The translations under genes and the position numbers were made by a program. This document shows positions 7,271-57,559 of a DNA stretch of 64,000 nucleotides, in pieces. Origin of the DNA: Eledone cirrhosa (taxonomy: Eukaryota); assembly GCA_964016885.1 (NCBI GenBank), contig OZ024744.1, forward strand, positions 132,432,001 through 132,496,000. Reading direction: 5' to 3'. Positions within the stretch are counted from its first letter, which is position 1. Each line of letters starts with the position of its first letter. The notes beneath the pieces are model-generated. The model was not told the DNA's origin. It ran no database searches and worked only from the letters and a program-made list of their open reading frames with translations.

Positions 7271-8069
7271 AGGTTTGTCGAAAACCTTATATAATCATTT
7301 TTATTTAGGTTCTTCGAAACACCTTATATAATCAATTTTTTTAGGTTTTTCGAAAAACCTTATATAATCAATTTTTTAATACTTTTAGAAATATTTATAT
7401 CTGATTTCAAATATTGATTTTATTAGGTTTTTGGAATAATCAATTTTTTTTACGTTTTTCGAAAAATGTTATATAATCAATTTTTTTTAGGTTTTTCGAA
7501 TCAATTCAATTTTTATAATCAAATATTTTTAGGTTTTTAGAAAAACCTTATATAATCAAATTTTTTTAGGTTTTTCGAAAAACCTTATATAATTAATTTT
7601 TTTATACTTTTAGAAATATTTATATCTGATTTCAAATATTGGATTTTTTAGGTTTTTCGATAATCAATTTTTTTTAGATTTTTCGAAAAATCTTATATAA
7701 TCAATTTTTTTACGTTTTTAGAAAGACCTTATATAATCAATTTTTTTATACTTTTAGAAATATTTATATCTGATTTCAAATATTGATTTTTTTTTTAGGT
7801 TTTTCGAAATACCTTATATAATCAATTTTTTTTAGGTTTTTCAAATTACTTTATATAATCAATTTTTTTTATCTGATTTCAAATATTGATTTTTTTAGCT
7901 TTTTCGACAAAATCTTATATAATCAATTTTTTTTAGGTTTTTCGAAAAAGAATGAATTTGAGTTCATAGTCGAAATATATACTTCTGCATTAATCTTTTT
8001 ACGTTTTTTTGATTTTTTTTAAAAAAACGTAAAAAATTAATGCTTTTACAAATCTTTTGAAATATTCAC

Positions 8070-8121
8070 AATCTGCAAAATTTGAAACTAGAAAGTGTTC
8101 TAGTTTCAAATTTTGCAGATT
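8070..8121. repeat. Perfect 24-bp inverted repeat with 4-nt loop (further copies at 9742-9793 and 58359-58410)
   Basis: AATCTGCAAAATTTGAAACTAGAA-agtg-TTCTAGTTTCAAATTTTGCAGATT; the arms are exact reverse complements. Confidence 0.92.
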
Positions 8122-10945
8122 AAATTTTTCTCGAAAAACCTAAAAAATCAGTTGTCGAAATCAGAAGTTAATATTTCGTAAAACGCAATTTGAAAAACTC
8201 ATTAATTTTTTTTCGAAAACTTATTATATAATCAATTTTTTTATACTTTTAGAAATATTTATATCTGATTTCAAATATTGATTTTTTTAGGTTTTTCGAA
8301 AACCCTATATAATCAATTTTTTTGTACTTTTAGAAATATCTATATCTGATTTCATGTATTGATTTTTTTATATTTTTCGAAAAAGCTTAGATAATCAATT
8401 TTTTTAGGTCTTTCGAAAACATTATATAATCAATTTTTTTTTAGGTTTTTCGAAAAAACCTTATATAATCAATTTTTTTTAGGTTTTTCAAATATTGATT
8501 TTTTTAGCTTTTTCGACAAAATCTTATATAATCAATTTTTTTTAGGTTTTTCGAAAAAGAATGAATTTGAGTTCATAGTCGAAATATATACTTCTGCATT
8601 AATCTTTTTACGTTTTTTTGATTTTTTTAAAAAAACGTAAAAAATTAATGCTTTTACAAATCTTTTGAAATATTTACTTTCTAGTTTCAAATTTTGCAGA
8701 TTAAATTTTTCTCGAAAAACCTAAAAAATCAGTTGTCGAAATCAGAAGTTAATATTTCGAAAAACGCAATTTGAAAAACTCATATTAATTTTTTTTCGAA
8801 AACATTATATAATCAATTTTTTAGAAATATTTATATCTGATTTCAAATATTGATTTTTTTAGGTTTTTCGAAAACCCTATATAATCAATTTTTTTGTACT
8901 TTTAGAAATATCTATATCTGATTTCATGTATTGATTTTTTTATATTTTTCGAAAAATCTTATATAATCAATTTTTTTACGTTTTTAGAAAAACCTTATAT
9001 AATCAATTTTTTTTAGGTTTTTCGAAAAACCTTATATAATCAATTTTTTAATACTTTTAGAAATATTTATATCTGATTTCAAATATTGATTTTATTAGGT
9101 TTTTGGAATAATCAATTTTTTTTACGTTTTTCGAAAAATGTTATATAATCAATTTTTTTTAGGTTTTTCGAATCAATTCAATTTTTATAATCAAATATTT
9201 TTAGGTTTTTAGAAAAACCTTATATAATCAAATTTTTTTAGGTTTTTCGAAAAACCTTATATAATTAATTTTTTTATACTTTTAGAAATATTTATATCTG
9301 ATTTCAAATATTGGATTTTTTAGGTTTTTCGATAATCAATTTTTTTTAGATTTTTCGAAAAATCTTATATAATCAATTTTTTTACGTTTTTAGAAAGACC
9401 TTATATAATCAATTTTTTTATACTTTTAGAAATATTTATATCTGATTTCAAATATTGATTTTTTTTTTAGGTTTTTCGAAATACCTTATATAATCAATTT
9501 TTTTTAGGTTTTTCAAATTACTTTATATAATCAATTTTTTTTATCTGATTTCAAATATTGATTTTTTTAGCTTTTTCGACAAAATCTTATATAATCAATT
9601 TTTTTTAGGTTTTTCGAAAAAGAATGAATTTGAGTTCATAGTCGAAATATATACTTCTGCATTAATCTTTTTACGTTTTTTTGATTTTTTTTAAAAAAAC
9701 GTAAAAAATTAATGCTTTTACAAATCTTTTGAAATATTCACAATCTGCAAAATTTGAAACTAGAAAGTGTTCTAGTTTCAAATTTTGCAGATTAAATTTT
9801 TCTCGAAAAACCTAAAAAATCAGTTGTCGAAATCAGAAGTTAATATTTCGTAAAACGCAATTTGAAAAACTCATTAATTTTTTTTCGAAAACTTATTATA
9901 TAATCAATTTTTTTATACTTTTAGAAATATTTATATCTGATTTCAAATATTGATTTTTTTAGGTTTTTCGAAAACCCTATATAATCAATTTTTTTGTACT
10001 TTTAGAAATATCTATATCTGATTTCATGTATTGATTTTTTTATATTTTTCGAAAAAGCTTAGATAATCAATTTTTTTAGGTCTTTCGAAAACATTATATA
10101 ATCAATTTTTTTTTAGGTTTTTCGAAAAAACCTTATATAATCAATTTTTTTTAGGTTTTTCAAATATTGATTTTTTTAGCTTTTTCGACAAAATCTTATA
10201 TAATCAATTTTTTTTAGGTTTTTCGAAAAAGAATGAATTTGAGTTCATAGTCGAAATATATACTTCTGCATTAATCTTTTTACGTTTTTTTGATTTTTTT
10301 AAAAAAACGTAAAAAATTAATGCTTTTACAAATCTTTTGAAATATTTACTTTCTAGTTTCAAATTTTGCAGATTAAATTTTTCTCGAAAAACCTAAAAAA
10401 TCAGTTGTCGAAATCAGAAGTTAATATTTCGAAAAACGCAATTTGAAAAACTCATATTAATTTTTTTTCGAAAACATTATATAATCAATTTTTTAGAAAT
10501 ATTTATATCTGATTTCAAATATTAATCAATATTTTTAGGTTTTTCGAAAACCCTATATAATCAATTTTTTTGTACTTTTAGAAATATCTATATCTGATTT
10601 CATGTATTGATTTTTTTATATTTTTCGAAAAAGCTTAGATAATCAATTTTTTTAGATCTTTCGAAAACATTATATAATCAATTTTTTTTTAGGTTTTTCG
10701 AAAAAACCTTATATAATCAATTATTTTTAGGTTTTTTCGAAAAATCTTATATAATCAATTTTTTTACGTTTTTAGAAAAACCTTATATAATCAATTTTTT
10801 TTAGATTTTTCAAAAAACCTTATATAATCAATTTTTTTTGTTTTTTTGAAAAATCTTATATAATCAATTTTTTTACGTTTTTAGAAATATTTATATCTGA
10901 TTTCAAATATTGATTTTTTTTAGGTTTTTCGAATTACCTTATATA

Positions 10946-11009
10946 ATCAATTTTTTTTAGGTTTTTCAAATTACCATAAGGTAATTTGAAAAACCTAAAA
11001 AAAATTGAT
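10946..11009. repeat. Perfect 30-bp inverted repeat with 4-nt loop (further copies at 15334-15397, 17524-17587 and 60884-60947)
   Basis: ATCAATTTTTTTTAGGTTTTTCAAATTACC-ataa-GGTAATTTGAAAAACCTAAAAAAAATTGAT. Confidence 0.92.
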
Positions 11010-12176
11010 CTGATTTCAAACATTGATTTTTTTTAGCTTTTTCGACAAAATCTTATATAATCAATTTTCTTTAGGTTTTTCGAAAAAGAATGAATTTGAG
11101 TTCATAGTCGAAATATATACTTCTGCATTAATCTTTTTACGTTTTTTTGAAAAAATTAATGCTTTTACAAATCTTTTGAAATATTTACTTTCTAGTTTCA
11201 AATTTTGCAGATTAAATTTTTCTCGAAAAACCTAAAAAATCAGTTGTCGAAATCAGAAGTTAATATTTCGTAAAACGCAATTTGAAAAACTCATTAATTT
11301 TTTTTCGAAAACTTATTATATAATCAATTTTTTTATACTTTTAGAAATATTTATATCTGATTTCAAATATTGATTTTTTTAGGTTTTTCGAAAACCCTAT
11401 ATAATCAATTTTTTTGTACTTTTAGAAATATCTATATCTGATTTCATGTATTGATTTTTTTATATTTTTCGAAAAAGCTTAGATAATCAATTTTTTTAGG
11501 TCTTTCGAAAACATTATATAATCAATTTTTTTTTAGGTTTTTCGAAAAAACCTTATATAATCAATTTTTTTTAGGTTTTTCAAATATTGATTTTTTTAGC
11601 TTTTTCGACAAAATCTTATATAATCAATTTTTTTTAGGTTTTTCGAAAAAGAATGAATTTGAGTTCATAGTCGAAATATATACTTCTGCATTAATCTTTT
11701 TACGTTTTTTTGATTTTTTTAAAAAAACGTAAAAAATTAATGCTTTTACAAATCTTTTGAAATATTTACTTTCTAGTTTCAAATTTTGCAGATTAAATTT
11801 TTCTCGAAAAACCTAAAAAATCAGTTGTCGAAATCAGAAGTTAATATTTCGAAAAACGCAATTTGAAAAACTCATATTAATTTTTTTTCGAAAACATTAT
11901 ATAATCAATTTTTTAGAAATATTTATATCTGATTTCAAATATTGATTTTTTTAGGTTTTTCGAAAACCCTATATAATCAATTTTTTTGTACTTTTAGAAA
12001 TATCTATATCTGATTTCATGTATTGATTTTTTTATATTTTTCGAAAAATCTTATATAATCAATTTTTTTACGTTTTTAGAAAAACCTTATATAATCAATT
12101 TTTTTTAGGTTTTTCGAAAAACCTTATATAATCAATTTTTTTATGTTTTTTCGAAAAATCTTATATAATCAATTTT

Positions 12177-12396
12177 CTCCACCGTGAGTTTCAGCGATCT
12201 GAGGTCTGTTCTCACCACCTCCGCCCATGTTTTTTGTGATCTACCTCTACCCATCGGTCATCCTCCATGTACATCACATGTGCATACCACCTCTCCCATA
12301 CACTACATTCTATCCCCCTCACATATTGACATTGTACACCCAACGGAGCATGCTTGCCTCATTTCTCTCCAGCCGTCTAATATCCTCTGCAGTTAC
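12177..12396 (-). mobile_element. Degenerate fragment of an RTE-clade non-LTR retrotransposon (region C-terminal to the RT domain), internally deleted and frameshifted
   Basis: Manual minus-strand translation gives three consecutive pieces in different frames: VTAEDIRRLERNEASMLRWVYNVN / RGIECSVWERWYAHVMYMEDDRW / GRGRSQKTWAEVVRTDLRSLKLTVE. These match, in order, the RTE post-RT motifs 'E..MLR(W)', 'RW.GHV.RM' and 'RGRP..TW...V..D'. GC content is much higher than in the flanking satellite. Confidence 0.85.
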
Positions 12397-15300
12397 TTAT
12401 ATCTGATTTCAAATATTGATTTTTTTTAGATTTTTCGAAATACCTTATATAATCAATTTTTTTTAGGTTTTTCAAATTACCTTATATAATCAATTTTTTT
12501 TATCAGATTTCAAATATTGATTTTTTTTAGCTTTTTCGACAAAATCTTATATAATCAATTTTTTTTAGGTTTTTCGAAAAAGAATGAATTTGAGTTCATA
12601 GTCGAAATATATACTTCTGCATTAATCTTTTTACGTTTTTTTGATTTTTTTTAAAAAAACGTAAAAAATTAATGCTTTTACAAATCTTTTGAAATATTTA
12701 CTTTCTAGTTTCAAATTTTGCAGATTAAATTTTTCTCGAAAAACCTAAAAAATCAGTTGTCGAAATCAGAAGTTAATATTTCGAAAAACGCAATTTGAAA
12801 AACTCATATTAATTTTTTTTCGAAAACATTATATAATCAATTTTTTAGAAATATTTATATCTGATTTCAAATATTGATTTTTTTAGGTTTTTCGAAAACC
12901 CTATATAATCAATTTTTTTGTACTTTTAGAAATATCTATATCTGATTTCATGTATTGATTTTTTTATATTTTTCGAAAAAGCTTAGATAATCAATTTTTT
13001 TAGGTCTTTCGAAAACATTATATAATCAATTTTTTTTTAGGTTTTTCGAAAAAACCTTATATAATCAATTTTTTTTAGGTTTTTCAAATATTGATTTTTT
13101 TAGCTTTTTCGACAAAATCTTATATAATCAATTTTTTTTAGGTTTTTCGAAAAAGAATGAATTTGAGTTCATAGTCGAAATATATACTTCTGCATTAATC
13201 TTTTTACGTTTTTTTGATTTTTTTAAAAAAACGTAAAAAATTAATGCTTTTACAAATCTTTTGAAATATTTACTTTCTAGTTTCAAATTTTGCAGATTAA
13301 ATTTTTCTCGAAAAACCTAAAAAATCAGTTGTCGAAATCAGAAGTTAATATTTCGAAAAACGCAATTTGAAAAACTCATATTAATTTTTTTTCGAAAACA
13401 TTATATAATCAATTTTTTAGAAATATTTATATCTGATTTCAAATATTGATTTTTTTAGGTTTTTCGAAAACCCTATATAATCAATTTTTTTGTACTTTTA
13501 GAAATATCTATATCTGATTTCATGTATTGATTTTTTTATATTTTTCGAAAAATCTTATATAATCAATTTTTTTACGTTTTTAGAAAAACCTTATATAATC
13601 AATTTTTTTTAGGTTTTTCGAAAAACCTTATATAATCAATTTTTTTATGTTTTTTCGAAAAATCTTATATAATCAATTTTTTTACGTTTTTAGAAATATT
13701 TATATCTGATTTCAAATATTGATTTTTTTTAGATTTTTCGAAATACCTTATATAATCAATGTTTTTTAGGTTTTTCAAATTACCTTATATAATCAATTTT
13801 TTTTATCAGATTTCAAATATTGATTTTTTTTAGCTTTTTCGACAAAATCTTATATAATCAATTTTTTTTAGGTTTTTCGAAAAAGAATGAATTTGAGTTC
13901 ATAGTCGAAATATATACTTCTGCATTAATCTTTTTACGTTTTTTTGATTTTTTTTAAAAAAACGTAAAAAATTAATGCTTTTACAAATCTTTTGAAATAT
14001 TTACTTTCTAGTTTCAAATTTTGCAGATTAAATTTTTCTCGAAAAACCTAAAAAATCAGTTGTCGAAATCAGAAGTTAATATTTCGAAAAACGCAATTTG
14101 AAAAACTCATATTAATTTTTTTTCGAAAACATTATATAATCAATTTTTTAGAAATATTTATATCTGATTTCAAATATTAATCAATATTTTTAGGTTTTTC
14201 GAAAACCCTATATAATCAATTTTTTTGTACTTTTAGAAATATCTATATCTGATTTCATGTATTGATTTTTTTATATTTTTCGAAAAATCTTATATAATCA
14301 ATTTTTTTACGTTTTTAGAAAAACCTTATATAATCAATTTTTTTTAGGTTTTTCGAAAAACCTTATATAATCAATTTTTTTATGTTTTTTCGAAAAATCT
14401 TATATAATCAATTTTTTTACGTTTTTAGAAATATTTATATCTGATTTCAAATATTGATTTTTTTTAGATTTTTCGAAATACCTTATATAATCAATGTTTT
14501 TTAGGTTTTTCAAATTACCTTATATAATCAATTTTTTTTATCAGATTTCAAATATTGATTTTTTTTAGCTTTTTCGACAAAATCTTATATAATCAATTTT
14601 TTTTAGGTTTTTCGAAAAAGAATGAATTTGAGTTCATAGTCGAAATATATACTTCTGCATTAATCTTTTTACGTTTTTTTGATTTTTTTTAAAAAAACGT
14701 AAAAAATTAATGCTTTTACAAATCTTTTGAAATATTTACTTTCTAGTTTCAAATTTTGCAGATTAAATTTTTCTCGAAAAACCTAAAAAATCAGTTGTCG
14801 AAATCAGAAGTTAATATTTCGAAAAACGCAATTTGAAAAACTCATATTAATTTTTTTTCGAAAACATTATATAATCAATTTTTTAGAAATATTTATATCT
14901 GATTTCAAATATTAATCAATATTTTTAGGTTTTTCGAAAACCCTATATAATCAATTTTTTTGTACTTTTAGAAATATCTATATCTGATTTCATGTATTGA
15001 TTTTTTTATATTTTTCGAAAAAGCTTAGATAATCAATTTTTTTAGATCTTTCGAAAACATTATATAATCAATTTTTTTTTAGGTTTTTCGAAAAAACCTT
15101 ATATAATCAATTCTTTTTAGGTTTTTTCGAAAAATCTTATATAATCAATTTTTTTACGTTTTTAGAAAAACCTTATATAATCAATTTTTTTTAGATTTTT
15201 CAAAAAACCATATAATCAATTTTTTTTGTTTTTTTGAAAAATCTTATATAATCAATTTTTTTACGTTTTTAGAAATATTTATATCTGATTTCAAATATTG

Positions 15301-18300
15301 ATTTTTTTTAGGTTTTTCGAATTACCTTATATAATCAATTTTTTTTAGGTTTTTCAAATTACCATAAGGTAATTTGAAAAACCTAAAAAAAATTGATCTG
15401 ATTTCAAACATTGATTTTTTTAGCTTTTTCGACAAAATCTTATATAATCAATTTTCTTTAGGTTTTTCGAAAAAGAATGAATTTGAGTTCATAGTCGAAA
15501 TATATACTTCTGCATTAATCTTTTTACGTTTTTTTGAAAAAATTAATGCTTTTACAAATCTTTTGAAATATTTACTTTCTAGTTTCAAATTTTGCAGATT
15601 AAATTTTTCTCGAAAAACCTAAAAAATCAGTTGTCGAAATCAGAAGTTAATATTTCGTAAAACGCAATTTGAAAAACTCATTAATTTTTTTTCGAAAACT
15701 TATTATATAATCAATTTTTTTATACTTTTAGAAATATTTATATCTGATTTCAAATATTGATTTTTTTAGGTTTTTCGAAAACCCTATATAATCAATTTTT
15801 TTGTACTTTTAGAAATATCTATATCTGATTTCATGTATTGATTTTTTTATATTTTTCGAAAAAGCTTAGATAATCAATTTTTTTAGGTCTTTCGAAAACA
15901 TTATATAATCAATTTTTTTTTAGGTTTTTCGAAAAAACCTTATATAATCAATGTTTTTTAGGTTTTTCAAATTACCTTATATAATCAATTTTTTTTATCA
16001 GATTTCAAATATTGATTTTTTTTAGCTTTTTCGACAAAATCTTATATAATCAATTTTTTTTAGGTTTTTCGAAAAAGAATGAATTTGAGTTCATAGTCGA
16101 AACTAATACTTCTGCATTAATCTTTTTACGTTTTTTTGATTTTTTTTAAAAAAACGTAAAAAATTAATGCTTTTACAAATCTTTTGAAATATTTACTTTC
16201 TAGTTTCAAATTTTGCAGATTAAATTTTTCTCGAAAAACCTAAAAAATCAGTTGTCGAAATCAGAAGTTAATATTTCGAAAAACGCAATTTGAAAAACTC
16301 ATATTAATTTTTTTTCGAAAACATTATATAATCAATTTTTTAGAAATATTTATATCTGATTTCAAATATTGATTTTTTTAGGTTTTTCGAAAACCCTATA
16401 TAATCAATTTTTTTGTACTTTTAGAAATATCTATATCTGATTTCATGTATTGATTTTTTTATATTTTTCGAAAAATTTTATATAATCAATTTTTTTACGT
16501 TTTTAGAAAAACCTTATATAATCAATTTTTTTTAGGTTTTTCGAAAAACCTTATATAATCAATTTTTTTATGTTTTTTCGAAAAATCTTATATAATCAAT
16601 TTTTTTACGTTTTTAGAAATATTTATATCTGATTTCAAATATTGATTTTTTTTAGATTTTTCGAAATACCTTATATAATCAATGTTTTTTAGGTTTTTCA
16701 AATTACCTTATATAATCAATTTTTTTTATCAGATTTCAAATATTGATTTTTTTTAGCTTTTTCGACAAAATCTTATATAATCAATTTTTTTTAGGTTTTT
16801 CGAAAAAGAATGAATTTGAGTTCATAGTCGAAATATATACTTCTGCATTAATCTTTTTACGTTTTTTTGATTTTTTTTAAAAAAACGTAAAAAATTAATG
16901 CTTTTACAAATCTTTTGAAATATTTACTTTCTAGTTTCAAATTTTGCAGATTAAATTTTTCTCGAAAAACCTAAAAAATCAGTTGTCGAAATCAGAAGTT
17001 AATATTTCGAAAAACGCAATTTGAAAAACTCATATTAATTTTTTTTCGAAAACATTATATAATCAATTTTTTAGAAATATTTATATCTGATTTCAAATAT
17101 TAATCAATATTTTTAGGTTTTTCGAAAACCCTATATAATCAATTTTTTTGTACTTTTAGAAATATCTATATCTGATTTCATGTATTGATTTTTTTATATT
17201 TTTCGAAAAAGCTTAGATAATCAATTTTTTTAGATCTTTCGAAAACATTATATAATCAATTTTTTTTTAGGTTTTTCGAAAAAACCTTATATAATCAATT
17301 CTTTTTAGGTTTTTTCGAAAAATCTTATATAATCAATTTTTTTACGTTTTTAGAAAAACCTTATATAATCAATTTTTTTTAGATTTTTCAAAAAACCTTA
17401 TATAATCAATTTTTTTTGTTTTTTTGAAAAATCTTATATAATCAATTTTTTTACGTTTTTAGAAATATTTATATCTGATTTCAAATATTGATTTTTTTTA
17501 GGTTTTTCGAATTACCTTATATAATCAATTTTTTTTAGGTTTTTCAAATTACCATAAGGTAATTTGAAAAACCTAAAAAAAATTGATCTGATTTCAAACA
17601 TTGATTTTTTTAGCTTTTTCGACAAAATCTTATATAATCAATTTTCTTTAGGTTTTTCGAAAAAGAATGAATTTGAGTTCATAGTCGAAATATATACTTC
17701 TGCATTAATCTTTTTACGTTTTTTTGAAAAAATTAATGCTTTTACAAATCTTTTGAAATATTTACTTTCTAGTTTCAAATTTTGCAGATTAAATTTTTCT
17801 CGAAAAACCTAAAAAATCAGTTGTCGAAATCAGAAGTTAATATTTCGTAAAACGCAATTTGAAAAACTCATTAATTTTTTTTCGAAAACTTATTATATAA
17901 TCAATTTTTTTATACTTTTAGAAATATTTATATCTGATTTCAAATATTGATTTTTTTAGGTTTTTCGAAAACCCTATATAATCAATTTTTTTGTACTTTT
18001 AGAAATATCTATATCTGATTTCATGTATTGATTTTTTTATATTTTTCGAAAAAGCTTAGATAATCAATTTTTTTAGGTCTTTCGAAAACATTATATAATC
18101 AATTTTTTTTTAGGTTTTTCGAAAAAACCTTATATAATCAATGTTTTTTAGGTTTTTCAAATTACCTTATATAATCAATTTTTTTTATCAGATTTCAAAT
18201 ATTGATTTTTTTTAGCTTTTTCGACAAAATCTTATATAATCAATTTTTTTTAGGTTTTTCGAAAAAGAATGAATTTGAGTTCATAGTCGAAACTAATACT

Positions 18301-21300
18301 TCTGCATTAATCTTTTTACGTTTTTTTGATTTTTTTTAAAAAAACGTAAAAAATTAATGCTTTTACAAATCTTTTGAAATATTTACTTTCTAGTTTCAAA
18401 TTTTGCAGATTAAATTTTTCTCGAAAAACCTAAAAAATCAGTTGTCGAAATCAGAAGTTAATATTTCGAAAAACGCAATTTGAAAAACTCATATTAATTT
18501 TTTTTCGAAAACATTATATAATCAATTTTTTAGAAATATTTATATCTGATTTCAAATATTGATTTTTTTAGGTTTTTCGAAAACCCTATATAATCAATTT
18601 TTTTGTACTTTTAGAAATATCTATATCTGATTTCATGTATTGATTTTTTTATATTTTTCGAAAAATTTTATATAATCAATTTTTTTACGTTTTTAGAAAA
18701 ACCTTATATAATCAATTTTTTTTAGGTTTTTCGAAAAACCTTATATAATCAATTTTTTTATGTTTTTTCGAAAAATCTTATATAATCAATTTTTTTACGT
18801 TTTTAGAAATATTTATATCTGATTTCAAATATTGATTTTTTTTAGATTTTTCGAAATACCTTATATAATCAATGTTTTTTAGGTTTTTCAAATTACCTTA
18901 TATAATCAATTTTTTTTATCAGATTTCAAATATTGATTTTTTTTAGCTTTTTCGACAAAATCTTATATAATCAATTTTTTTTAGGTTTTTCGAAAAAGAA
19001 TGAATTTGAGTTCATAGTCGAAATATATACTTCTGCATTAATCTTTTTACGTTTTTTTGATTTTTTTTAAAAAAACGTAAAAAATTAATGCTTTTACAAA
19101 TCTTTTGAAATATTTACTTTCTAGTTTCAAATTTTGCAGATTAAATTTTTCTCGAAAAACCTAAAAAATCAGTTGTCGAAATCAGAAGTTAATATTTCGA
19201 AAAACGCAATTTGAAAAACTCATATTAATTTTTTTTCGAAAACATTATATAATCAATTTTTTAGAAATATTTATATCTGATTTCAAATATTGATTTTTTT
19301 AGGTTTTTCGAAAACCCTATATAATCAATTTTTTTGTACTTTTAGAAATATCTATATCTGATTTCATGTATTGATTTTTTTATATTTTTCGAAAAAGCTT
19401 AGATAATCAATTTTTTTAGGTCTTTCGAAAACATTATATAATCAATTTTTTTACGTTTTTAGAAAAACCTTATATAATCAATTTTTTTTAGGTTTTTCGA
19501 AAAACCTTATATAATCAATTTTTTTATGTTTTTTCGAAAAATCTTATATAATCAATTTTTATACGTTTTTAGAAATATTTATATCTGATTTCAAATATTG
19601 ATTTTTTTTAGATATTTCGAAATACCTTATATAATAAATTTTTTTTAGGTTTTTCAAATTACCTTATATAATCAATTATTTTTATCAGATTTCAAATATT
19701 GATTTTTTTTAGCTTTTTCGACAAAATCTTATATAATCAATTTTTTTTAGGTTTTTCGAAAAAGAATGAATTTGAGTTCATAGTCGAAATATATACTTCT
19801 GCATTAATCTTTTTACGTTTTTTTGATTTTTTTTAAAAAAACGTAAAAAATTAATGCTTTTACAAATCTTTTGAAATATTTACTTTCTAGTTTCAAATTT
19901 TGCAGATTAAATTTTTCTCGAAAAACCTAAAAAATCAGTTGTCGAAATCAGAAGTTAATATTTCGAAAAACGCAATTTGAAAAACTCATATTAATTTTTT
20001 TTCGAAAACATTATATAATCAATTTTTTAGAAATATTTATATCTGATTTCAAATATTGATTTTTTTAGGTTTTTCGAAAACCCTATATAATCAATTTTTT
20101 TGTACTTTTAGAAATATCTATATCTGATTTCATGTATTGATTTTTTTATATTTTTCGAAAAAGCTTAGATAATCAATTTTTTTAGGTCTTTCGAAAACAT
20201 TATATAATCAATTTTTTTACGTTTTTAGAAAAACCTTATATAATCAATTTTTTTTAGGTTTTTCGAAAAACCTTATATAATCAATTTTTTTATGTTTTTT
20301 CGAAAAATCTTATATAATCAATTTTTTTACGTTTTTAGAAATATTTATATCTGATTTCAAATATTGATTTTTTTTAGATATTTCGAAATACCTTATATAA
20401 TCAATTTTTTTTTAGGTTTTTCAAACTACCTTATATAATCAATTTTTTTTATCAGATTTCAAATATTGATTTTTTTTAGCTTTTTCGACAAAATCTTATA
20501 TAATCAATTTTTTTTAGGTTTTTCGAAAAAGAATGAATTTGAGTTCATAGTCGAAATATATACTTCTGCATTAATCTTTTTACGTTTTTTTGATTTTTTT
20601 TAAAAAAACGTAAAAAATTAATGCTTTTACAAATCTTTTGAAATATTTACTTTCTAGTTTCAAATTTTGCAGATTAAATTTTTCTCGAAAAACCTAAAAA
20701 ATCAGTTGTCGAAATCAGAAGTTAATATTTCGAAAAACGCAATTTGAAAAACTCATATTAATTTTTTTTCGAAAACATTATATAATCAATTTTTTAGAAA
20801 TATTTATATCTGATTTCAAATATTGATTTTTTTGTACTTTTAGAAATATCTATATCTGATTTCATGTATTGATTTTTTTATATTTTTCGAAAAATCTTAT
20901 ATAATCAATTTTTTTACGTTTTTAGAAAAACCTTATATAATCAATTTTTTTTAGGTTTTTCGAAAAACCTTATATAATCAATTTTTTTATGTTTTTTCGA
21001 AAAATCTTATATAATCAATTTTTTTACGTTTTTAGAAATATTTATATCTGATTTCAAATATTGATTTTTTTTAGATTTTTCGAAATACCTTATATAATCA
21101 ATTTTTTTTAGGTTTTTCAAATCACCTTATATAATCAATTTTTTTTATCTGATTTCAAATATTGATTTTTTTAGCTTTTTCGACAAAATCTTATATAATC
21201 AATTTTTTTTAGGTTTTTCGAAAAAGAATGAATTTGAGTTCATAGTCGAAATATATACTTCTGCATTAATCTTTTTACGTTTTTTTGAAAAAATTAATGC

Positions 21301-21836: not shown

Positions 21837-22018
21837 CCCCGACTTAACTTAACCCCAACTTAACTTAACCCCAACTTAACTTAACCCCAACTTAACTTAA
21901 CCCCAACTTGACTTAACCCCAACATAACTCACACCCAACTTAACTTACCCCCAACTTAACTTAACCCCAACTTGACTTAACCCCAACTTAACTTAACCCC
22001 AACTTAACTTAACGCCAA
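21837..22018 (-). repeat. Inverted satellite A cassette, truncated by the B>A junction
   Basis: ccccgacttaacttaaccccaac... ending aacgccaa-agtcggag. Confidence 0.9.
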
Positions 22019-27630: not shown

Positions 27631-27767
27631 AACCCCAACTTAACTTAACCCCAACTTAACTTAACCCCAACTTAACTTAACCCTAACTTAACTTAACCCC
27701 GACTTAACGTAAGCCCGACTTAACTTAACCCCATCTTAACTTACCCCCAAACTTAACTTAACCCCAA
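27631..27767 (-). repeat. Inverted satellite A cassette (short)
   Basis: GGGGTT|AACCCC start; ccccaa-agtcggag end. Confidence 0.9.
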
Positions 27768-46398: not shown

Positions 46399-49300
46399 AG
46401 GTTTGTCGAAAACCTTATATAATCATTTTTATTTAGGTTCTTCGAAACACCTTATATAATCAATTTTTTTAGGTTTTTCGAAAAACCTTATATAATCAAT
46501 TTTTTAATACTTTTAGAAATATTTATATCTGATTTCAAATATTGATTTTATTAGGTTTTTGGAATAATCAATTTTTTTTACGTTTTTCGAAAAATGTTAT
46601 ATAATCAATTTTTTTTAGGTTTTTCGAATCAATTCAATTTTTATAATCAAATATTTTTAGGTTTTTAGAAAAACCTTATATAATCAAATTTTTTTAGGTT
46701 TTTCGAAAAACCTTATATAATTAATTTTTTTATACTTTTAGAAATATTTATATCTGATTTCAAATATTGGATTTTTTAGGTTTTTCGATAATCAATTTTT
46801 TTTAGATTTTTCGAAAAATCTTATATAATCAATTTTTTTACGTTTTTAGAAAGACCTTATATAATCAATTTTTTTATACTTTTAGAAATATTTATATCTG
46901 ATTTCAAATATTGATTTTTTTTTTAGGTTTTTCGAAATACCTTATATAATCAATTTTTTTTAGGTTTTTCAAATTACTTTATATAATCAATTTTTTTTAT
47001 CTGATTTCAAATATTGATTTTTTTAGCTTTTTCGACAAAATCTTATATAATCAATTTTTTTTAGGTTTTTCGAAAAAGAATGAATTTGAGTTCATAGTCG
47101 AAATATATACTTCTGCATTAATCTTTTTACGTTTTTTTTATTTTTTTAAAAAAACGTAAAAAATTAATGCTTTTACAAATCTTTTGAAATATTTACTTTC
47201 TAGTTTCAAATTTTGCAGATTAAATTTTTCTCGAAAAACCTAAAAAATCAGTTGTCGAAATCAGAAGTTAATATTTCGAAAAACGCAATTTGAAAAACTC
47301 ATATTAATTTTTTTTCGAAAACATTATATAATCAATTTTTTAGAAATATTTATATCTGATTTCAAATATTGATTTTTTTAGGTTTTTCGAAAACCCTATA
47401 TAATCAATTTTTTTGTACTTTTAGAAATATCTATATCTGATTTCATGTATTGATTTTTTTATATTTTTCGAAAAATCTTATATAATCAATTTTTTTACGT
47501 TTTTAGAAAAACCTTATATAATCAATTTTTTTTAGGTTTTTCGAAAATCCTTATATAATCAATTTTTTTATGTTTTTTCGAAAAATCTTATATAATCAAT
47601 TTTTTTACGTTTTTAGAAATATTTATATCTGATTTCAAATATTGATTTTTTTTAGATTTTTCGAAATACCTTATATAATCAATTTTTTTTAGGTTTTTCA
47701 AATTACCTTATATAATCAATTTTTTTTATCAGATTTCAAATATTGATTTTTTTTAGCTTTTTCGACAAAATCTTATATAATCAATTTTTTTTAGGTTTTT
47801 CGAAAAAGAATGAATTTGAGTTCATAGTCGAAATATATACTTCTGCATTAATCTTTTTACGTTTTTTTGATTTTTTTTAAAAAAACGTAAAAAATTAATG
47901 CTTTTACAAATCTTTTGAAATATTTACTTTCTAGTTTCAAATTTTGCAGATTAAATTTTTCTCGAAAAACCTAAAAAATCAGTTGTCGAAATCAGAAGTT
48001 AATATTTCGAAAAACGCAATTTGAAAAACTCATATTAATTTTTTTTCGAAAACATTATATAATCAATTTTTTAGAAATATTTATATCTGATTTCAAATAT
48101 TGATTTTTTTAGGTTTTTCGAAAACCCTATATAATCAATTTTTTTGTACTTTTAGAAATATCTATATCTGATTTCATGTATTGATTTTTTTATATTTTTC
48201 GAAAAAGCTTAGATAATCAATTTTTTTAGGTCTTTCGAAAACATTATATAATCAATTTTTTTTTAGGTTTTTCGAAAAAACCTTATATAATCAATTTTTT
48301 TTAGGTTTTTCAAATATTGATTTTTTTAGCTTTTTCGACAAAATCTTATATAATCAATTTTTTTTAGGTTTTTCGAAAAAGAATGAATTTGAGTTCATAG
48401 TCGAAATATATACTTCTGCATTAATCTTTTTACGTTTTTTTGATTTTTTTAAAAAAACGTAAAAAATTAATGCTTTTACAAATCTTTTGAAATATTTACT
48501 TTCTAGTTTCAAATTTTGCAGATTAAATTTTTCTCGAAAAACCTAAAAAATCAGTTGTCGAAATCAGAAGTTAATATTTCGAAAAACGCAATTTGAAAAA
48601 CTCATATTAATTTTTTTTCGAAAACATTATATAATCAATTTTTTAGAAATATTTATATCTGATTTCAAATATTGATTTTTTTAGGTTTTTCGAAAACCCT
48701 ATATAATCAATTTTTTTGTACTTTTAGAAATATCTATATCTGATTTCATGTATTGATTTTTTTATATTTTTCGAAAAATCTTATATAATCAATTTTTTTA
48801 CGTTTTTAGAAAAACCTTATATAATCAATTTTTTTTAGGTTTTTCGAAAAACCTTATATAATCAATTTTTTTATGTTTTTTCGAAAAATCTTATATAATC
48901 AATTTTTTTACGTTTTTAGAAATATTTATATCTGATTTCAAATATTGATTTTTTTTAGATTTTTCGAAATACCTTATATAATCAATGTTTTTTAGGTTTT
49001 TCAAATTACCTTATATAATCAATTTTTTTTATCAGATTTCAAATATTGATTTTTTTTAGCTTTTTCGACAAAATCTTATATAATCAATTTTTTTTAGGTT
49101 TTTCGAAAAAGAATGAATTTGAGTTCATAGTCGAAATATATACTTCTGCATTAATCTTTTTACGTTTTTTTGATTTTTTTTAAAAAAACGTAAAAAATTA
49201 ATGCTTTTACAAATCTTTTGAAATATTTACTTTCTAGTTTCAAATTTTGCAGATTAAATTTTTCTCGAAAAACCTAAAAAATCAGTTGTCGAAATCAGAA

Positions 49301-51211
49301 GTTAATATTTCGAAAAACGCAATTTGAAAAACTCATATTAATTTTTTTTCGAAAACATTATATAATCAATTTTTTAGAAATATTTATATCTGATTTCAAA
49401 TATTGATTTTTTTAGGTTTTTCGAAAACCCTATATAATCAATTTTTTTGTACTTTTAGAAATATCTATATCTGATTTCATGTATTGATTTTTTTATATTT
49501 TTCGAAAAAGCTTAGATAATCAATTTTTTTAGGTCTTTCGAAAACATTATATAATCAATTTTTTTACGTTTTTAGAAAAACCTTATATAATCAATTTTTT
49601 TTAGGTTTTTCGAAAAACCTTATATAATCAATTTTTTTATGTTTTTTCGAAAAATCTTATATAATCAATTTTTTTACGTTTTTAGAAATATTTATATCTG
49701 ATTTCAAATATTGATTTTTTTTAGATATTTCGAAATACCTTATATAATCAATTTTTTTTAGGTTTTTCAAATTACCTTATATAATCAATTTTTTTTATCA
49801 GATTTCAAATATTGATTTTTTTTAGCTTTTTCGACAAAATCTTATATAATCAATTTTTTTTAGGTTTTTCGAAAAAGAATGAATTTGAGTTCATAGTCGA
49901 AATATATACTTCTGCATTTTTACGTTTTTTTGATTTTTTTTAAAAAAACGTAAAAAATTAATGCTTTTACAAATCTTTTGAAATATTTACTTTCTAGTTT
50001 CAAATTTTGCAGATTAAATTTTTCTCGAAAAACCTAAAAAATCAGTTGTCGAAATCAGAAGTTAATATTTCGAAAAACGCAATTTGAAAAACTCATATTA
50101 ATTTTTTTTCGAAAACATTATATAATCAATTTTTTAGAAATATTTATATCTGATTTCAAATATTGATTTTTTTAGGTTTTTCGAAAACCCTATATAATCA
50201 ATTTTTTTGTACTTTTAGAAATATCTATATCTGATTTCATGTATTGATTTTTTTATATTTTTCGAAAAATCTTATATAATCAATTTTTTTACGTTTTTAG
50301 AAAAACCTTATATAATCAATTTTTTTTAGGTTTTTCGAAAAACCTTATATAATCAATTTTTTTATGTTTTTTCGAAAAATCTTATATAATCAATTTTTTT
50401 ACGTTTTTAGAAATATTTATATCTGATTTCAAATATTGATTTTTTTTAGATTTTTCGAAATACCTTATATAATCAATTTTTTTTAGGTTTTTCAAATCAC
50501 CTTATATAATCAATTTTTTTTATCTGATTTCAAATATTGATTTTTTTAGCTTTTTCGACAAAATCTTATATAATCAATTTTTTTTAGGTTTTTCGAAAAA
50601 GAATGAATTTGAGTTCATAGTCGAAATATATACTTCTGCATTAATCTTTTTACGTTTTTTTGAAAAAATTAATGCTTTTACAAATCTTTTGAAATATTTA
50701 CTTTCTAGTTTCAAATTTTGCAGATTAAATTTTTCTCGAAAAACCTAAAAAATCAGTTGTCGAAATCAGAAGTTAATATTTCGTAAAACGCAATTTGAAA
50801 AACTCATATTAATTTTTTTTCGAAAACTTATTATATAATCAATTTTTTTATACTTTTAGAAATATTTATATCTGATTTCAAATATTGATTTTTTTAGGTT
50901 TTTCGAAAACCCTATATAATCAATTTTTTTGTACTTTTAGAAATATCTATATCTGATTTCATGTATTGATTTTTTTATATTTTTCGAAAAAGCTTAGATA
51001 ATCAATTTTTTTAGGTCTTTCGAAAACCTTATATAATCAATTTTTTTTTAGGTTTTTCGAAAAAACCTTATATAATCAATTTTTTTTAGGTTTTTTCGAA
51101 AAATCTTACATAATCAATTTTTTTACGTTTTTAGAAATATTTATATCTGATTTCAAATATTGATTTTTTTTAGATTTTTCGAAATACCTTATTTTTAGGT
51201 TTTTCAAATTA
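46399..51211 (+). repeat. Satellite B block 3
   Basis: Near-identical to B2 at offset 8240, plus one extra ~0.7-kb monomer. Confidence 0.96.
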
Positions 51212-54200
51212 CCCCGACTTAACTTAACCCCAACTTAACTTAACCCCAACTTAACTTAACCCCAACTTAACTTAACCCCAACTTGACTTAACCCCAACAT
51301 AACTCACACCCAACTTAACTTACCCCCAACTTAACTTAACCCCAACTTGACTTAACCCCAACTTAACTTAACCCCAACTTAACTTAACGCCAAAGTCGGA
51401 GTTAAGTTACGTTGGGGTTAAGCTAAGTTGGGGGTAAGTTAAGTTGGGGGTAAGTTAAATTGGGGTTAAGTTAAGTTGGGGTTAAGTTAGGGTTAAGTTA
51501 AGTTGGGTATAAGTTAAGTTGGGGTTGAGTGAAGTTGGGGTTAAGTTAAGTTGGGGTTAAGTTAAGTTAGGGTTAATTTAAGTTGGGGTTAAGTTAAGTT
51601 GGGGTTAACTTAAGTTGGGGTTAAGTTAAGTTGGGGTTAATTTAGGTTGGGGTTAAGTTAAGTTGGGGTTAAGATAAGTTGGGGTTAAGTTAAATTGAGA
51701 TTAAGTTAACTTGGGTTTGAGTTAAGTTGGGGATAAGTTAAGTGGTGGTTATGTTAAGTTGGGGTTAAGTTAAGTTGGGGTTAACCCCAACTTAACTTAA
51801 CCCCAACTTAACTTAACCCCAACTTCACTCAACCCCAACTTAAATTAACCCCAACTTCACTCAACCCCAACTTAACTCAACCCCAACTTAAATTAACCCC
51901 AACTTAACTTAACCCTGACTTAACTTAACCCCGACTTAACTTCACCCCGACTTAACTTAACCCCAACTTAACTTAAACCCCAACTTAACTTAACCCCAAC
52001 TTAACTTAACCCCAACTTGACTTAACCCCAACTTAACTCACACCCAACTTAACTTACCCCCAACTTAACTTAACCACAACTTGACGTAAACCCAACTTAA
52101 CTTAACCCCAACTTAACTTAACCCCAAAGTCGGAGTTCAGTTAAGTTGGGGTTCAGTTAAGTTAGGCTTAACTTAAGTTGGGGTTAAGTTAAGTTGGGGG
52201 TAAGTTAAGTTGGGGGTAAGTTAAGTTGGGGTTAAGTTAAGTTGGGGTTAAGTTGGGGTTAAGTTAAGTTAGGGTTAAGTTAAGTTGGGGTTGAGTTAAG
52301 TTGGGGTTAAGTTAAGTGGTGGTTATGTTAAGTTGGGGTTAAGTTAAGTTGGGGTTAAATTAAGTGGGGTTAACTTAAGTTGGGTGTAAGTTAAGTTGGG
52401 GTTGAGTGAAGTTGGGGTTAAGTTAAGTTGGGGTTAAGTTAAGTTAGGGTTAATTTAAGTTGGGGTTATGTTAAGTTGGTGTTAAGTTAAGTTGGGGTTA
52501 AGTCGAGTTGGGGTTAAGTTAAGTTGGGGTTAAGTTAAATTGGTGTTAAGTTAAGTTGGGGTTAAGTTAAGTTGGGGTTAGTTAAGTTGAGTTTAAGTTA
52601 AGTTGGGGTTAATTTAAGTTGGGGTTAAGTTAAGTTGGGGTTGAGTTAAGTTGTGGTTAAGTTAAGTTGGGGTTAGGTTAAGTTGGGGTTAAGTTAAGCT
52701 GGGGTTAAATTAAGTTTGGGTTAAGTTAAGTTGGGGTTAGGTTAAGTTGGGGTTAACCCCAACTTCACTCAACCCCAACTTAACTTAACCCCAACTTCAC
52801 TCAACCCCAACTTAACTCAACCCCAACTTAACTTAACCCCAACTTAACTTAACCCTAACTTAACTTAACCCCGACTTAAACTTAACCCCGACTTAACTTA
52901 ACCCCAACTTAACTTAACCCCAACTTAATTTAACCCCAACTTAACTTAATCCCAACTTGACTTAACCCCAACTTAACTCACACCCAACTTAACTTACCCC
53001 CAACTTAACTTAACTTAACCCCAAAGTCGGAGTTAAGTTAAGTTGGGGTTAAGTTAAGTTAGGCTTAACTTAAGTTGGGGTTAAGTTAAGTTGGGGGTAA
53101 GTTAAGTTGGGGGTAAGTTAAGTTGGGGTTAAGTTAAGTTGGGGTTAAGATAAGTGGTGGTTATGTTAAGTTGAGGTTAAGTTAAGTTAGGGTTAAATTA
53201 AGTTGGGGTTAAGTTAAGTTGGGTGTAAGTTAAGTTGGGGTTGAGTGAAGTTGGGGTTAAGTTAAGTTGGGGTTAAGTAGAGTTGGGGTTAAGTTAAGTT
53301 GGGGTTAAGTTAAGTTGGTGTTAAGTTGGGGTTAAGTTAAGTTGGGGTTAAGTTGGGGTTAAGTTAAGTGGTGGTTATGTTAAGTTGAGGTTAAGTTAAG
53401 TTAGGGTTAAATTAAGTTGGGGTTAAGTTAAGTTGGGTGTAAGTTAAGTTGGGGTTGAGTGAAGTTGGGGTTAAGTTAAGTTGGGGTTAAGTAGAGTTGG
53501 GGTTAAGTTAAGTTGGGGTTAAGTTAAGTTGGTGTTAAGTTGGGGTTAAGTTAAGTTGGGGTTAAGTTGGGGTTAAGTTAAGTGGTGGTTATGTTAAGTT
53601 GGGGTTAACTTAAGTTGGGGTTAATTTAAATTGGGGTTAAGTTAACTTTGTGGTTAAGTTAAGTTGGGGTTAAGTTAAGTTGGGGTTAAATTAAGTTGGG
53701 GTTGAGTGAAGTTGGGGTTAAGTTAAGTTGGGGTTAAGTTAAGTTGGGGTTAACTTAAGTTGGGTTTAAGTTAAGTTGCGGTTAAGTTAAGTTGGGGTTA
53801 AGTTAAGTTGGGGTTAATTTAAGTCGGGGTTAATTTAAGTTGGGGTTGAGTTAAGTTGGGGTTAATTTAAGTTGAGGTTATGTTAAGTTGGGGTTAATTT
53901 AAGTTGGGGTTAAGTTAAGTTGGGGTTAAGTTAAGTTGGGGTTAATTTAAGTTGGGATTAAGTTCAGTTGGGGTTAAATTAAGTTGGGGTTAAGTTAAGC
54001 TGGGGTTAAATTAAGTTGGGGTTAAGTTAAGTTGGGGTTAAGTTAAGTTGGGGTTAAGTTAAGTTAGGGTTAATTTAAGTTGGGGTTATGTTAAGTTGGG
54101 GTTAAGTTAAGTTGGGGTTAAGTCGAGTTGGGGTTAAGTTAAGTTGGGGTTAGTTAAGTTGAGTTTAAGTTAAGTTGGGGTTAATTTAAGTTGGGGTTAA

Positions 54201-57200
54201 GTTAAGTTGGGGTTCAGTTAAGTTGGGGTTAAGTTTAGTTGGGGTTAAGTTAAGTTGGTTTAAGTTAAGTTGGGGTTAGGTTAAGTTGGGGATAAGTTAA
54301 GTTGGGGATAAGGTAAGTTGGGGTTAAGTTAAGTTGGGTTTAAGTTAAGTTGGGGTTAAGTTAAGTTAGGCTTAACTTAAGTTGGGGTTAAGTTAAGTTG
54401 GGGGTAAATTAAGTTGGGGGTTAGTTAAGTTGGGGTTAAGTTAAGTTGGGGTTAAGTTAAGTGGTGGTTATGTTAAGTTGGGGTTAAGTTAAGTTGGGGT
54501 TAAATTAAGTTGGGGTTAAGTTATGTTGGGTGTAAGTTAAGTTGGGGTTGAGTGAAGTTGGGGTTAAGTTAAGTTGGGGTTAAGTTAAGTTAGGGTTAAT
54601 TTAAGTTGGGGTTATGTTAAGTTGGGGTTAAGTTAAGTTGGGGTTAAGTAGAGTTGGGGTTAAGTTAAGTTGGGGTTAAGTTAAGTTGGTGTTAAGTTGG
54701 GGTTAAGTTAAGTTGGGGTTAAGTTAAGTCGGAGTTAAGTTAAGTTGGGGTTGAGTTAAGTTGGGGTTAATTTAAGTTGAGGTTATGTTAAGTTGGGGTT
54801 AATTTAAGTTGGGGTTAAGTTAAGTTGGGGTTAAGTTGAGGTTAAGTTAAGTTGTGGTTAAGTTAAGTTGGGGCTAAGTTAAGTTGGGGCTAAGTTAAGT
54901 TGGGGCTAAGTTAAGTTGGGGTTAAGTTAAGTTGGGGTTAAGTTAAGTTGGGTTTAATTTAAGTTGGGGTCAACTTAAGTTGGGGTTAAGTTGAGTTGGG
55001 GTTAAATTAAGTTGGGGTTAATTTAAGTTGGGGCTAAGTTAAGTTGGGGCTGAGTTAAGTTGGGGTTAAGTTAAGTTGGGGTTAAGTTAAGTTGGGGTTA
55101 AGTTAATTTTGGGTTAAGTTAAGTTGTGTTTCAGTTAAGTTGGGGTTAAGTTAAGTTTGGGTTAATTTGGGGTTAAATTAAGTTGGGGTTAAGTTAAGTT
55201 GGGGTTAAGTTAAGTTGGGGTTAAGTTAAGTTGGGGTTAATTTAAGTTGGGGTTAAGTTAAGTCGGGGTTAAGTTAAGTCGGTGTTAAGTTAAGTTAGGG
55301 TTAAGTTAAGTTGGGGTTAAGTTAAGTTGGCTTTAAGTTAAGCTGGGGTTAAGTTAAGTTGGTGTTAAGTTGGGGTTAAGTTAAGTTGGGGTTAAGTTGG
55401 GGTTAAGTTAAGTGGTGGTTATGTTAAGTTGGGGTTAAGTTAAGTTGGGGTTAATTTAAATTGGGGTTAAGTTAACTTTGTGGTTAAGTTAAGTTGGAGT
55501 TAAGTTAAGTTGGGGTTAAGTTAAGTTGGGGTTGAGTGAAGTTGGGGTTAATTTAAGTTGGGGTTCAGTTAAGTTGGGGTTAAGTTAAGTTGGGGTTGAG
55601 TGAAGTTGGGGTTAATTTAAGTTGGGGTTAAGTTAAGTTGGGGTTAAGTTAAGTTGGGGTTAAGTTAAGTTGGGGTTAAGTTAAGTTGGGTTTAAGTTAA
55701 GTTGGGGTTAAATTAAGTTGGGGTTAAATTAAAGTGGGGTTAAGTTAAGTTGGGGGTAAGTTAAGTTGGGGGCAAGTTAAGTTGGTGTTAAGTTAAGTTG
55801 GGGTTAAGTTAAGTTGGGGTTAAGTTAAGTTGGGTTTAAGTTAAGTTGGGACTAAGTTAAGTTAGGGCTAAGTTCAGTTGGGGTAAAGTTAAGTTGGGGC
55901 TAAGTTAAGTTGGGTATAAGTTGAGTTGGGGTTAAGTTAAGTTGGGGTTAAGTTAAGTTGGGGTTAAATTAAGTTGGGGTTAATTAAGTTGGGGTTAAGT
56001 TAAGTTGGGGTTAAGTTAAGTTGGGGTTAATTTAAGTTGGGGTTGTGTTAATTTGGGGTTAAGTTAAGTTGGGGTTATATTAAGTTGGGGTTAAGTTAAG
56101 TTGGGTTTAAGTTAAGTTGGGGTTAAGTTAAGTTGGGGTTAAGTTGAGTTAGGGTTAATTTAAGTTGGGGTTATGTTAAGTTGGGGTTAAGTTAAGTTGG
56201 GGTTAAGTAGAGTTGGGGTTAATTTAAGTTGGGGTTAAGTTAAGTTGGTGTTAAGTTGGGGTTAAGTTAAGTTGGGGTTAAGTTGGGGTTAAGTTGAGTG
56301 GTGGTTATGTTAAGTTGGGGTTAAGTTAAGTTGGGGTTAATTTAAATTGGGGTTAAGTTAACTTTGTGGTTAAGTTAAGTTGGAGTTAAGTTAAGTTGGG
56401 GTTAAGTTAAGTTGGGGTTGAGTTAAGTTGGGGTTAAATTAAGTTGGGGTTAAATTAAGGTGGGGTTAAGTTAAGTTGGGGGTAAGTTAAGTTGGGGGCA
56501 AGTTAAGTTGGTGTTAAGTTAAGTTGGGGTTAAGTTAAGTTGGGGTTAAGTTAAGTTGGGTTTAAGTTAAGTTGGGACTAAGTTAAGTTAGGGCTAAGTT
56601 AAGTTGGGGTTAATTAAGTTGGGGCTAAGTTAAGTTGGGTCTAAGTTGAGTTGGGGTTAAGTTAAGTTGGGGTTAAGTTAAGTTGGGGTTAAATTAAGTT
56701 GGGGTTAATTAAGTTGGGGTTAAGTTAAGTTGGGGTTAAGTTAAGTTGGGGTTAATTTAAGTTGGGGGTAAGTTAAGTTGGTGGTAAGTTAAGTTGGGGT
56801 TAAGTTAAGTTGGGGTTAATTTAAATTGGGGTTAATTTAACTTTGTGGTTAAGTTAAGTTGGGGTTTATTTAAGTTGGGTTTAAGTTAAGTTGGGGTTGA
56901 GTTAAGTTGGGGTTGAGTGAAGTTGGGGTTAAGTTAAGTCGGGGTTAATTTAAGTTGGGGTTGAGTTAAGTCGGGGTTAATTCAAGTTGGGGCTAAGTTA
57001 ATTTGTGGTTAAGTTAAGTTGGGGTTAAGTTAAGTTGGGGTTAAGTTAAGTTGGGGGTAAGTTAAGTTGGGGGCAAGTTAAGTTGGGGTTAAGTTAAGTT
57101 GCGGTTAATTTAAGTTGGGGTTAAGTTAAGTTGGGTTTAAGTTAAGTTGGGGTTCAGTTAAGTTGGGGTTTAGTTAAGTTGGGGTTAAGTTAAGTTGGGG

Positions 57201-57559
57201 TTGAGTTAAGTTGGGGTTTAATTAAGTTGGGGTTGAGTTAAGTTGGGGTTTAGTTAAGTGGGGGTTGAGTTAAGTTGGGGTTAAGCTAAGTTGGGGTTAA
57301 GTTAAATTGAGGTTAAGTTAACTTGGGTTTGAGTTAAGTTGGGGTTAAGTTAAGTTGGTGTTAAGTTCAGTTCAGGTTAAGTTAACTTGGGGTTAAGTTA
57401 AGTTGGGGTTGAGTTAAGTTGGGGTTGAGTTAAGTTGGGGTTAAGTTAAGTTGGGGTTAACTTAAGTTGGGGTTAAGTTAAGTTGGGGTTAATTTAAGTT
57501 GGGGTTCAGTTAAATTGAGGTTAAGATAACTTGGGTTTGCGTTAAGATGGGGTTAAGTT
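51212..57559 (+). repeat. Satellite A block 4 (inverted cassettes at 51212-51393, 51783-52127 and 52755-53024)
   Basis: The first ~4.1 kb matches the start of A2 and the last ~2.2 kb matches the end of A1/A2. Confidence 0.96.

Follow-up and report, generated by a model that had tools for sequence, protein, structure and literature searches.

A 64,000-bp window of the Eledone cirrhosa genome (positions 132,432,001–132,496,000 of scaffold C28, contig OZ024744.1 of assembly GCA_964016885.1) consists of two alternating repeats—a G-rich satellite, here called A, and an AT-rich satellite, B—which meet at recurrent joins while the lengths of the blocks between them vary widely. The account that we favor, to which we assign a probability of about 0.52, is that of a compound satellite, in which a piece of B was captured once by A and the blocks were remodeled by unequal exchange within arrays; the likely setting is pericentromeric heterochromatin of the likely Z chromosome. 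The combination of fixed joins and elastic interiors is itself well explained as a by-product of ordinary satellite turnover.

Satellite A is composed of a 16-bp G-rich unit, TTGGGGTTAAGTTAAG, with 86–87% matches, and satellite B of 37- and 45-bp subrepeats plus a core of ~250 bp, with 18% GC and a higher-order unit of ~570–770 bp (period of 563–1063 bp in the first B block of the window). The initial annotation of the window held the two to be unrelated, and indeed 4-kb samples of each shared no 11-mer. All blocks are given on the forward strand: A at 1–7270 (~87% matches to the unit, with an inverted patch at ~2170–2426), B at 7271–21835 (14,565 bp), A at 21836–38158 (16,323 bp, containing inverted patches 130–340 bp long at ~21836, 22411, 23383, 27634, 29048, 30052, and 33085), B at 38159–42259 (4,101 bp), A at 42260–46398 (4,139 bp, two inverted patches at its start), B at 46399–51210 (4,812 bp), A at 51211–57559 (6,349 bp, three inverted patches), and finally B at 57560–64000, truncated by the window end and 12,244 bp long in the genome. 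A 51-base probe for the A-to-B join matched at 7236, 38124, 46364, and 57525 (first B base at 7271, 38159, 46399, and 57560), and a 43-base probe for the B-to-A join at 21806, 42230, and 51181 (first A base at 21836, 42260, and 51211); both sets of recurrences, as well as the B+A unit lengths of 30,888, 8,240, and 11,161 bp, agree with those first reported.

Genome-wide, exact copies of these junctions were found 25 times for A-to-B and 7 times for the window's form of B-to-A in 3.0 Gb, all at interstitial positions on the one scaffold, versus none for reversed controls, and their recurrence is therefore not due to chance. We read one contiguous stretch of 700 kb around the window (131.99–132.69 Mb, no N), in which the A-to-B join is the same in 46 of 46 B blocks (132.01–132.68 Mb) apart from one site that is G or T in a ratio of 25:21; the junction described as identical is thus so within the window, where the first copy (7236–7305) carries the G variant, but not beyond it. 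An older cluster at 128.56–129.60 Mb, sampled as nine stretches, has the same join point in 9 blocks (8.4% diverged), and two inverted blocks at 124.64 Mb have it as well. This join is one ancestral event, and the proposal of a single fusion holds for it; three secondary A-to-B joins, starting inside B, were also found. The supposedly invariant B-to-A join, on the contrary, takes at least four forms—among the 46 blocks, 23 are of a direct form (type 1), 14 of an inverted form (type 2), 8 of type 2 with a 15-bp deletion, and 1 of another form, with a further form throughout the older cluster. The window's own form, seen at 21806–21848 where B is joined to an inverted A patch, is type 2 with the deletion and so represents 8 of 46 blocks. 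Both partners share an overlap of 5 bases (TTAGG) at the A-to-B join and of 2–3 bases at the B-to-A joins. Two samples from a single study each yielded about 7 raw reads that cross the A-to-B join, with 2–3 start places and both variants, confirming that this join is real; contigs of one further sequencing run covered only its B side, and a run labeled with another organism (share 0.20) had no record on the junction.

The mitochondrial COX1 of this genome matches that of Eledone cirrhosa exactly. The host scaffold is 136,499,333 bp long, with the window ~4 Mb from its end. It comes after the size-ordered scaffolds C1–C27 (C27, 22.4 Mb) and before small ones (C29, 49 kb), and it carries exons of Amnionless at 56.35–56.39 Mb, a gene described as Z-linked in O. 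vulgaris and O. sinensis (10.1101/2024.12.09.627507). On the strength of this gene and the scaffold order, C28 is likely the Z chromosome. Satellite A was present in all 28 spot samples of 2–3 kb taken between 127.0 and 135.32 Mb, and samples at 126.9 and 135.4 Mb were non-A, which gives an array of 8.3–8.5 Mb; at 5.1 matches per kb over ~8.2 Mb, an estimated ~70% of the 59,678 A matches in the genome lie here. Within this array, B forms ~90 islands of 0.8–41 kb. A genome-wide B marker had 366 copies—2 on C18, 2 at 124.64 Mb of C28, 80 in the older cluster (about 37 blocks), 252 in the 700 kb, and a remainder of 30, with 12 of these in 40 kb sampled from 132.69–132.79 Mb. The 46 blocks of the 700 kb measure 819–40,864 bp (207 kb in total) and are separated by A spacers of 494–33,100 bp, bearing out the suggestion that both halves had expanded or contracted (B 0.8–40.9 kb). 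It is in the 132.0–132.8 Mb cluster that B blocks reach their greatest length (40.9 kb) and that copies are nearly identical (99.2–99.6%); this cluster extends up to the 132.79-Mb gap in the scaffold, past which the strand of A is flipped. Just after this gap stands ~1.3 kb of degraded C-rich sequence, likely read-end noise, and the orientation of 132.8–133.3 Mb is for that reason uncertain.

The pattern of duplication within the mosaic indicates how these blocks changed in length. Defining duplications as same-diagonal matches of at least 3 kb in a k-mer diagonal scan (n = 109), we found that 38 cross a junction, while none of the 218 ends falls within 50 bp of one, our cut-off for proximity (2.9 expected by chance). 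No whole unit is identical to another among the 45 examined; what is copied are segments of 1–12 kb that cross junctions and end inside arrays, such as 36866–41876 of the window, a segment that begins in A, finishes in B, and equals 45106–50116 but for a single mismatch. Furthermore, the G/T site and the type of B-to-A join occur in all four combinations (G with type 1, 15; T with type 1, 8; G with type 2, 10; T with type 2, 12; one other). Because no duplication ends at a junction and the two markers are unlinked, copying of whole units is not supported, and we could not uphold the view that the chimera was amplified as a unit; rather, since duplications end inside arrays and all four variant combinations exist, the junctions were likely carried along passively by unequal exchange of the ordinary kind. 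A mobile cassette or transposon with fixed ends was rejected on the same absence of duplication ends at the junction, and on the confinement of the copies to 124.6–132.8 Mb of C28.

Within the young cluster, the junction differs by 0.6–0.7% versus 0.25–2.0% for the B core, and between clusters by 8.4% versus 6.5%; conservation of the junction does not exceed that of the B interior. The figures obtained at the A flank (5.1%) and at the inversion junction (9.8%) reflect repeat-phase misalignment and were not used. Published estimates give a synonymous divergence (dS) of 0.091 over 13–34 million years (as reported in PMC10925132); very roughly, the young cluster would be ~1–3 million years old and the split between clusters 10–30 million years. 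The inverted A patches of 0.1–0.5 kb likewise use recurrent sites: fold-back entry into a patch occurs at one motif (~148 cases), and exit from it also at one motif (~171 cases). As 23 B blocks are joined to inverted A, the difference between exits and entries fits an origin of type 2 by deletion. A fold-back hairpin within B (10936–11012, arms of ~35 bp; further copies at 15354, 17544, and 60904, and 27 in the 700 kb) breaks at the same B site as the type 2 join, which suggests that this site is a fragile spot.

Relatives of both satellites occur elsewhere in the genome. Using exact probes (80 bases for A, 19 bases for the B core; C1–C18 and C28 within scope, C19–C27 and unplaced scaffolds outside it) and a probe common to the B variants, we located arrays of the two families at 57% of the length of C1, 50% of C2, 49% of C3, 23–30% of C18, and 91–99% of C28. 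A is thus not a Z-specific satellite, a possibility that we rejected on its presence on C2, C3, and C18; nor do exact probes support a universal centromere repeat, with none on C4–C17 among the matches listed. On C3, A occupies 184.77–185.38 Mb of 378.9 Mb, and on C18 it lies at 4.80 and 9.9–10.45+ Mb of 43.9 Mb, the former array stopping abruptly at a tandem sequence that has the look of C2H2 zinc fingers. A variant of A on C2 (209.20–209.85+ Mb of 416.3 Mb) is arranged in compound units of ~500 bp; this compound satellite, at least 0.65 Mb at the chromosome midpoint, combines A-variant repeats with a 270-bp non-repeat element and is joined to a B-variant array. B also occurs free of A, in units of ~370 bp at 12.85–13.07 Mb of C18, with a core ~94% identical to that of the C28 B; this array of 220 kb has an older G-rich, A-like repeat of six-base units on both sides, in opposite orientations. 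A shorter B variant is found on C2 (209.17–209.20 Mb, joined to the A compound) and on C1 (251.10–251.19 Mb of 442.9 Mb), where the array spans 87 kb with a 45/91-bp period, internal strand switches, and flanking pieces of long interspersed nuclear elements (LINEs), and where, past a gap, another, C-rich satellite occupies 251.19–251.5+ Mb. The probe common to the B variants had 1,183 of its 1,354 matches within the sequence retrieved from C1, C2, and C28.

The surroundings of A on C3 bear on its origin. There, A adjoins an interstitial array of degenerate CCCTAA repeats, at least 65 kb long (184.70–184.77 Mb), in which 270-bp elements stand in tandem between telomere repeats; these are copies, 77–92% identical, of the element that is flanked by A repeats in the C2 compound unit and by CCCTAA on C3. 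This adjacency suggests that A may descend from telomere repeats. Elsewhere, large interstitial arrays containing TTAGGG lie near the middle of C1 (208.56 and 217.83 Mb) and are possible fusion scars.

Putting these observations together, the mosaic likely began with one capture, in which a piece of AT-rich B, from a donor that may have been related to the free array of C18, entered an 8-Mb array of G-rich, telomere-like A that would itself have descended from TTAGGG-type repeats. The short overlaps at the joins would fit repair guided by microhomology. Exchange would then have taken place only like-with-like, A with A and B with B, changing block lengths and leaving joins untouched, and new B-to-A joins would have come from rare deletions running from inside B into A. 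Under this scheme the junction would have no function of its own, the block being bulk heterochromatin. Unequal crossover, gene conversion, and break-induced replication cannot be told apart as the means of exchange. That the mosaic is likely pericentromeric is suggested by the way A- and B-family arrays cluster about midway along three giant chromosomes, and also on C18, in octopods, whose chromosomes are reported to have localized centromeres (PMC5646656).

Several points weigh against this account. A same-diagonal match may end at a small indel instead of an exchange point, and recurrent mutation could mimic the four junction combinations. The pericentromeric part is drawn from chromosomal position only; the midpoints of the giant chromosomes could be fusion scars and not centromeres (the Eledone karyotype is described as rearranged in PMC12682272), C18 has a further A array, a small one, at 4.8 Mb, and, with exact probes, neither the A 80-mer on C1 and C4–C17 nor the B-core 19-mer on C1–C17 was found among the matches listed. 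The identity of the Z comes from scaffold order and a single marker gene; the SPAG9 domain (PF16471), another marker, which is named in PMC10925132, gave no match in a search of the genome. Finally, the window's form of the B-to-A join was spanned by no read or contig in four of four runs, a search of low power with reduced-representation reads and 8 copies of the join.

Among alternatives, the one that fares best, though we think it unlikely, is that of a neutral heterochromatic block on a sex chromosome, unrelated to any centromere, whose mosaic drifts by the same unequal exchange. The large share of all A matches held by this one array accords with such a block, as do the lack of extra conservation at the junctions and the abundance of other satellites on C28 (samples at 100, 115, 122, 124.4, 126.0, 135.5, and 136.3 Mb). 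An example of this kind is human Yq12, which lies away from the centromere. Its DYZ1 and DYZ2 arrays are described as simple-repeat and AT-rich blocks, 34–86 in number and variable in length, that alternate on a sex chromosome (10.1101/2022.12.01.518658); however, according to the same source, those blocks measure 11 kb–3.6 Mb over 18–37 Mb with units in a 1:1 ratio, whereas ours measure 0.5–41 kb and B is a minor guest. A neutral block fits poorly with the joint presence of both families at centromere-like positions on C2 and C18, and of A on C3 and B on C1, and the Z, unlike the Y, is paired in ZZ males.

It is also doubtful, if still deserving of attention, that the young B-rich mosaic (132.0–132.8 Mb) may be the active centromere of a telocentric Z, with CENP-A on B and flanking heterochromatin on A; the mosaic would have formed as in our preferred account, and the B family would mark the centromeres of C1, C2, and C18 as well. 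Layered centromere growth sets a young core among older repeats, and here the biggest B blocks (up to 40.9 kb), with copies 99.2–99.6% identical, are flanked by the older, more diverged cluster; C1, C2, and C18 each have a single location with B-family arrays. Dyad symmetries have been linked to centromeres (as described in PMC5889037), and satellite cassettes of Tribolium madens have been proposed as centromeric (PMC13081366). B has a low GC content and was initially called dyad-rich, which stands in part: dyads with arms of 8 or more were enriched in B on C28 (13 versus a shuffle mean of 4.0 and maximum of 8 in 20 shuffles) and in the C1 variant, but there was no excess in the C18 array, nor on C28 at arms of 6 or more. 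Folding z-scores for A and B (−7.6 to −12.2) were set aside, as tandem copies multiply any internal palindrome. Against a centromere count also the small amount of B (~0.2 Mb in 700 kb), the absence of its core from C1–C17 among the matches listed, the concentration of nearly all matches to the C1/C2 variant probe at three loci, and the exclusion of CENH3 from telomere–centromere mosaics as described in Arabidopsis (10.64898/2026.05.10.723265).

Misassembly is a very improbable source of the alternation. The gap with its strand flip and low-quality sequence at 132.79 Mb, and the unspanned B-to-A form, might point to one, but raw reads cross the A-to-B join in both samples and both variants, and the 700 kb contain no N, no identical units, and variants that are regionally ordered.

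The suggestion of a chromosome-end structure that caps or maintains the Z by recombination is the least credible of all and did not survive: A is G-rich on the strand toward the near end, like degenerate TTAGGG, telomere-like repeats flank B, and neither end of C28 reaches a telomere, but the A array gives way between 135.32 and 135.40 Mb to unrelated sequence that continues for 1.1 Mb on the distal side, the mosaic ends 3.7 Mb before the scaffold end, the exact junction is confined to one scaffold, and, of 24 scaffold ends, 4 consist purely of TTAGGG, with the polarity expected of a telomere, and A or B is present at 0 of 24. The canonical repeat is thus still present at chromosome ends (the telomerase gene itself was not searched). 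In chironomids, long complex repeats replace the telomere, unlike here, and the propensity of A to form G-quadruplexes is moderate (G4Hunter-style score of 0.99 versus 1.5 for TTAGGG). TTAGGG is described as the only experimentally determined telomere motif of cephalopods (PMC13218726). Templates for alternative lengthening of telomeres (TALT) in C. elegans resemble the mosaic in placing internal DNA between telomere-like repeats and copying it in tandem, but they are described as going to all chromosome ends upon telomerase loss (PMC4595603), whereas our mosaic occupies an interstitial site on a single chromosome of a genome that has TTAGGG ends; the CCCTAA and 270-bp layout on C3 is closer to TALT-like than the window is.

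Other features of the window are few. A single-copy LINE fragment of 220 bp, which we take to be RTE-like, lies within B on the reverse strand (12178–12397), and a scan of the window against Rfam gave no matches. At 136.30 Mb of C28, an 80-bp satellite is 75–80% identical to part of this fragment and so seems, by sequence, to be LINE-derived. Nuclear copies of mitochondrial COX1, all those listed, are on C2 (115.2, 163.8, 206.2, and 345.1 Mb).

Interspersed, non-homologous satellites with junctions are known from Drosophila buzzatii (pBuM/DBC-150). The closest parallel to the mosaic is in T. madens, where, as described, a cassette of a minor satellite is set in a multi-megabase major satellite (TmSat1/TmSat2) at putative (peri)centromeric locations (PMC13081366). 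The likenesses extend to the layout (here 46 B blocks in the 700 kb, plus further clusters, inside ~8.4 Mb of A), to conserved transition zones with variable repeat number (here 46/46 for A-to-B and two main forms in 45/46 for B-to-A), and to conserved inversion sites (here one motif each for entries and exits). In contrast to this case, the Tribolium satellites are reported in that study to share a 110-bp origin, to cover all chromosomes, and to form dyads of tens of kilobases; ours are unrelated, in a mosaic on one chromosome, with inverted patches of 0.1–0.35 kb and one join remade several times. Because the inverted patches are small and the junction is found on one scaffold, the mosaic has a like design and is not the Tribolium system itself, and because those cassettes have the same design, the architecture is already known, not undescribed as had been suggested. 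Mosaic satellites with interstitial telomeric repeats in Arabidopsis are similar in that megabase telomere-like arrays and another satellite were amplified in place near centromeres, but there the telomere motifs are described as arising from the centromeric repeat (10.64898/2026.05.10.723265), whereas A and B share no 11-mer and B was inserted.

What appears to be new is the cephalopod case, together with a candidate centromere-region sequence: in the literature searched (most subscription journals lying outside it, and motif strings not being searched), we found no description of cephalopod centromere or satellite sequence. Junction conservation can here be shown to reflect ancestry instead of constraint, which makes the mosaic a clean case for a question that had not been settled in the Tribolium cassettes. 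In practical terms, A, B, and their junction are ready targets for fluorescence in situ hybridization and cleavage under targets and release using nuclease (CUT&RUN) to locate octopus centromeres, and A, as a multi-megabase, Z-enriched repeat, is usable as a cytological mark of the Z. More speculatively, and we regard this as improbable, telomere-derived A and B together might mark several Eledone centromeres, with the young mosaic as that of the Z and AT-rich islands captured repeatedly at fusion sites; if true, this would be the first centromere DNA of any cephalopod.

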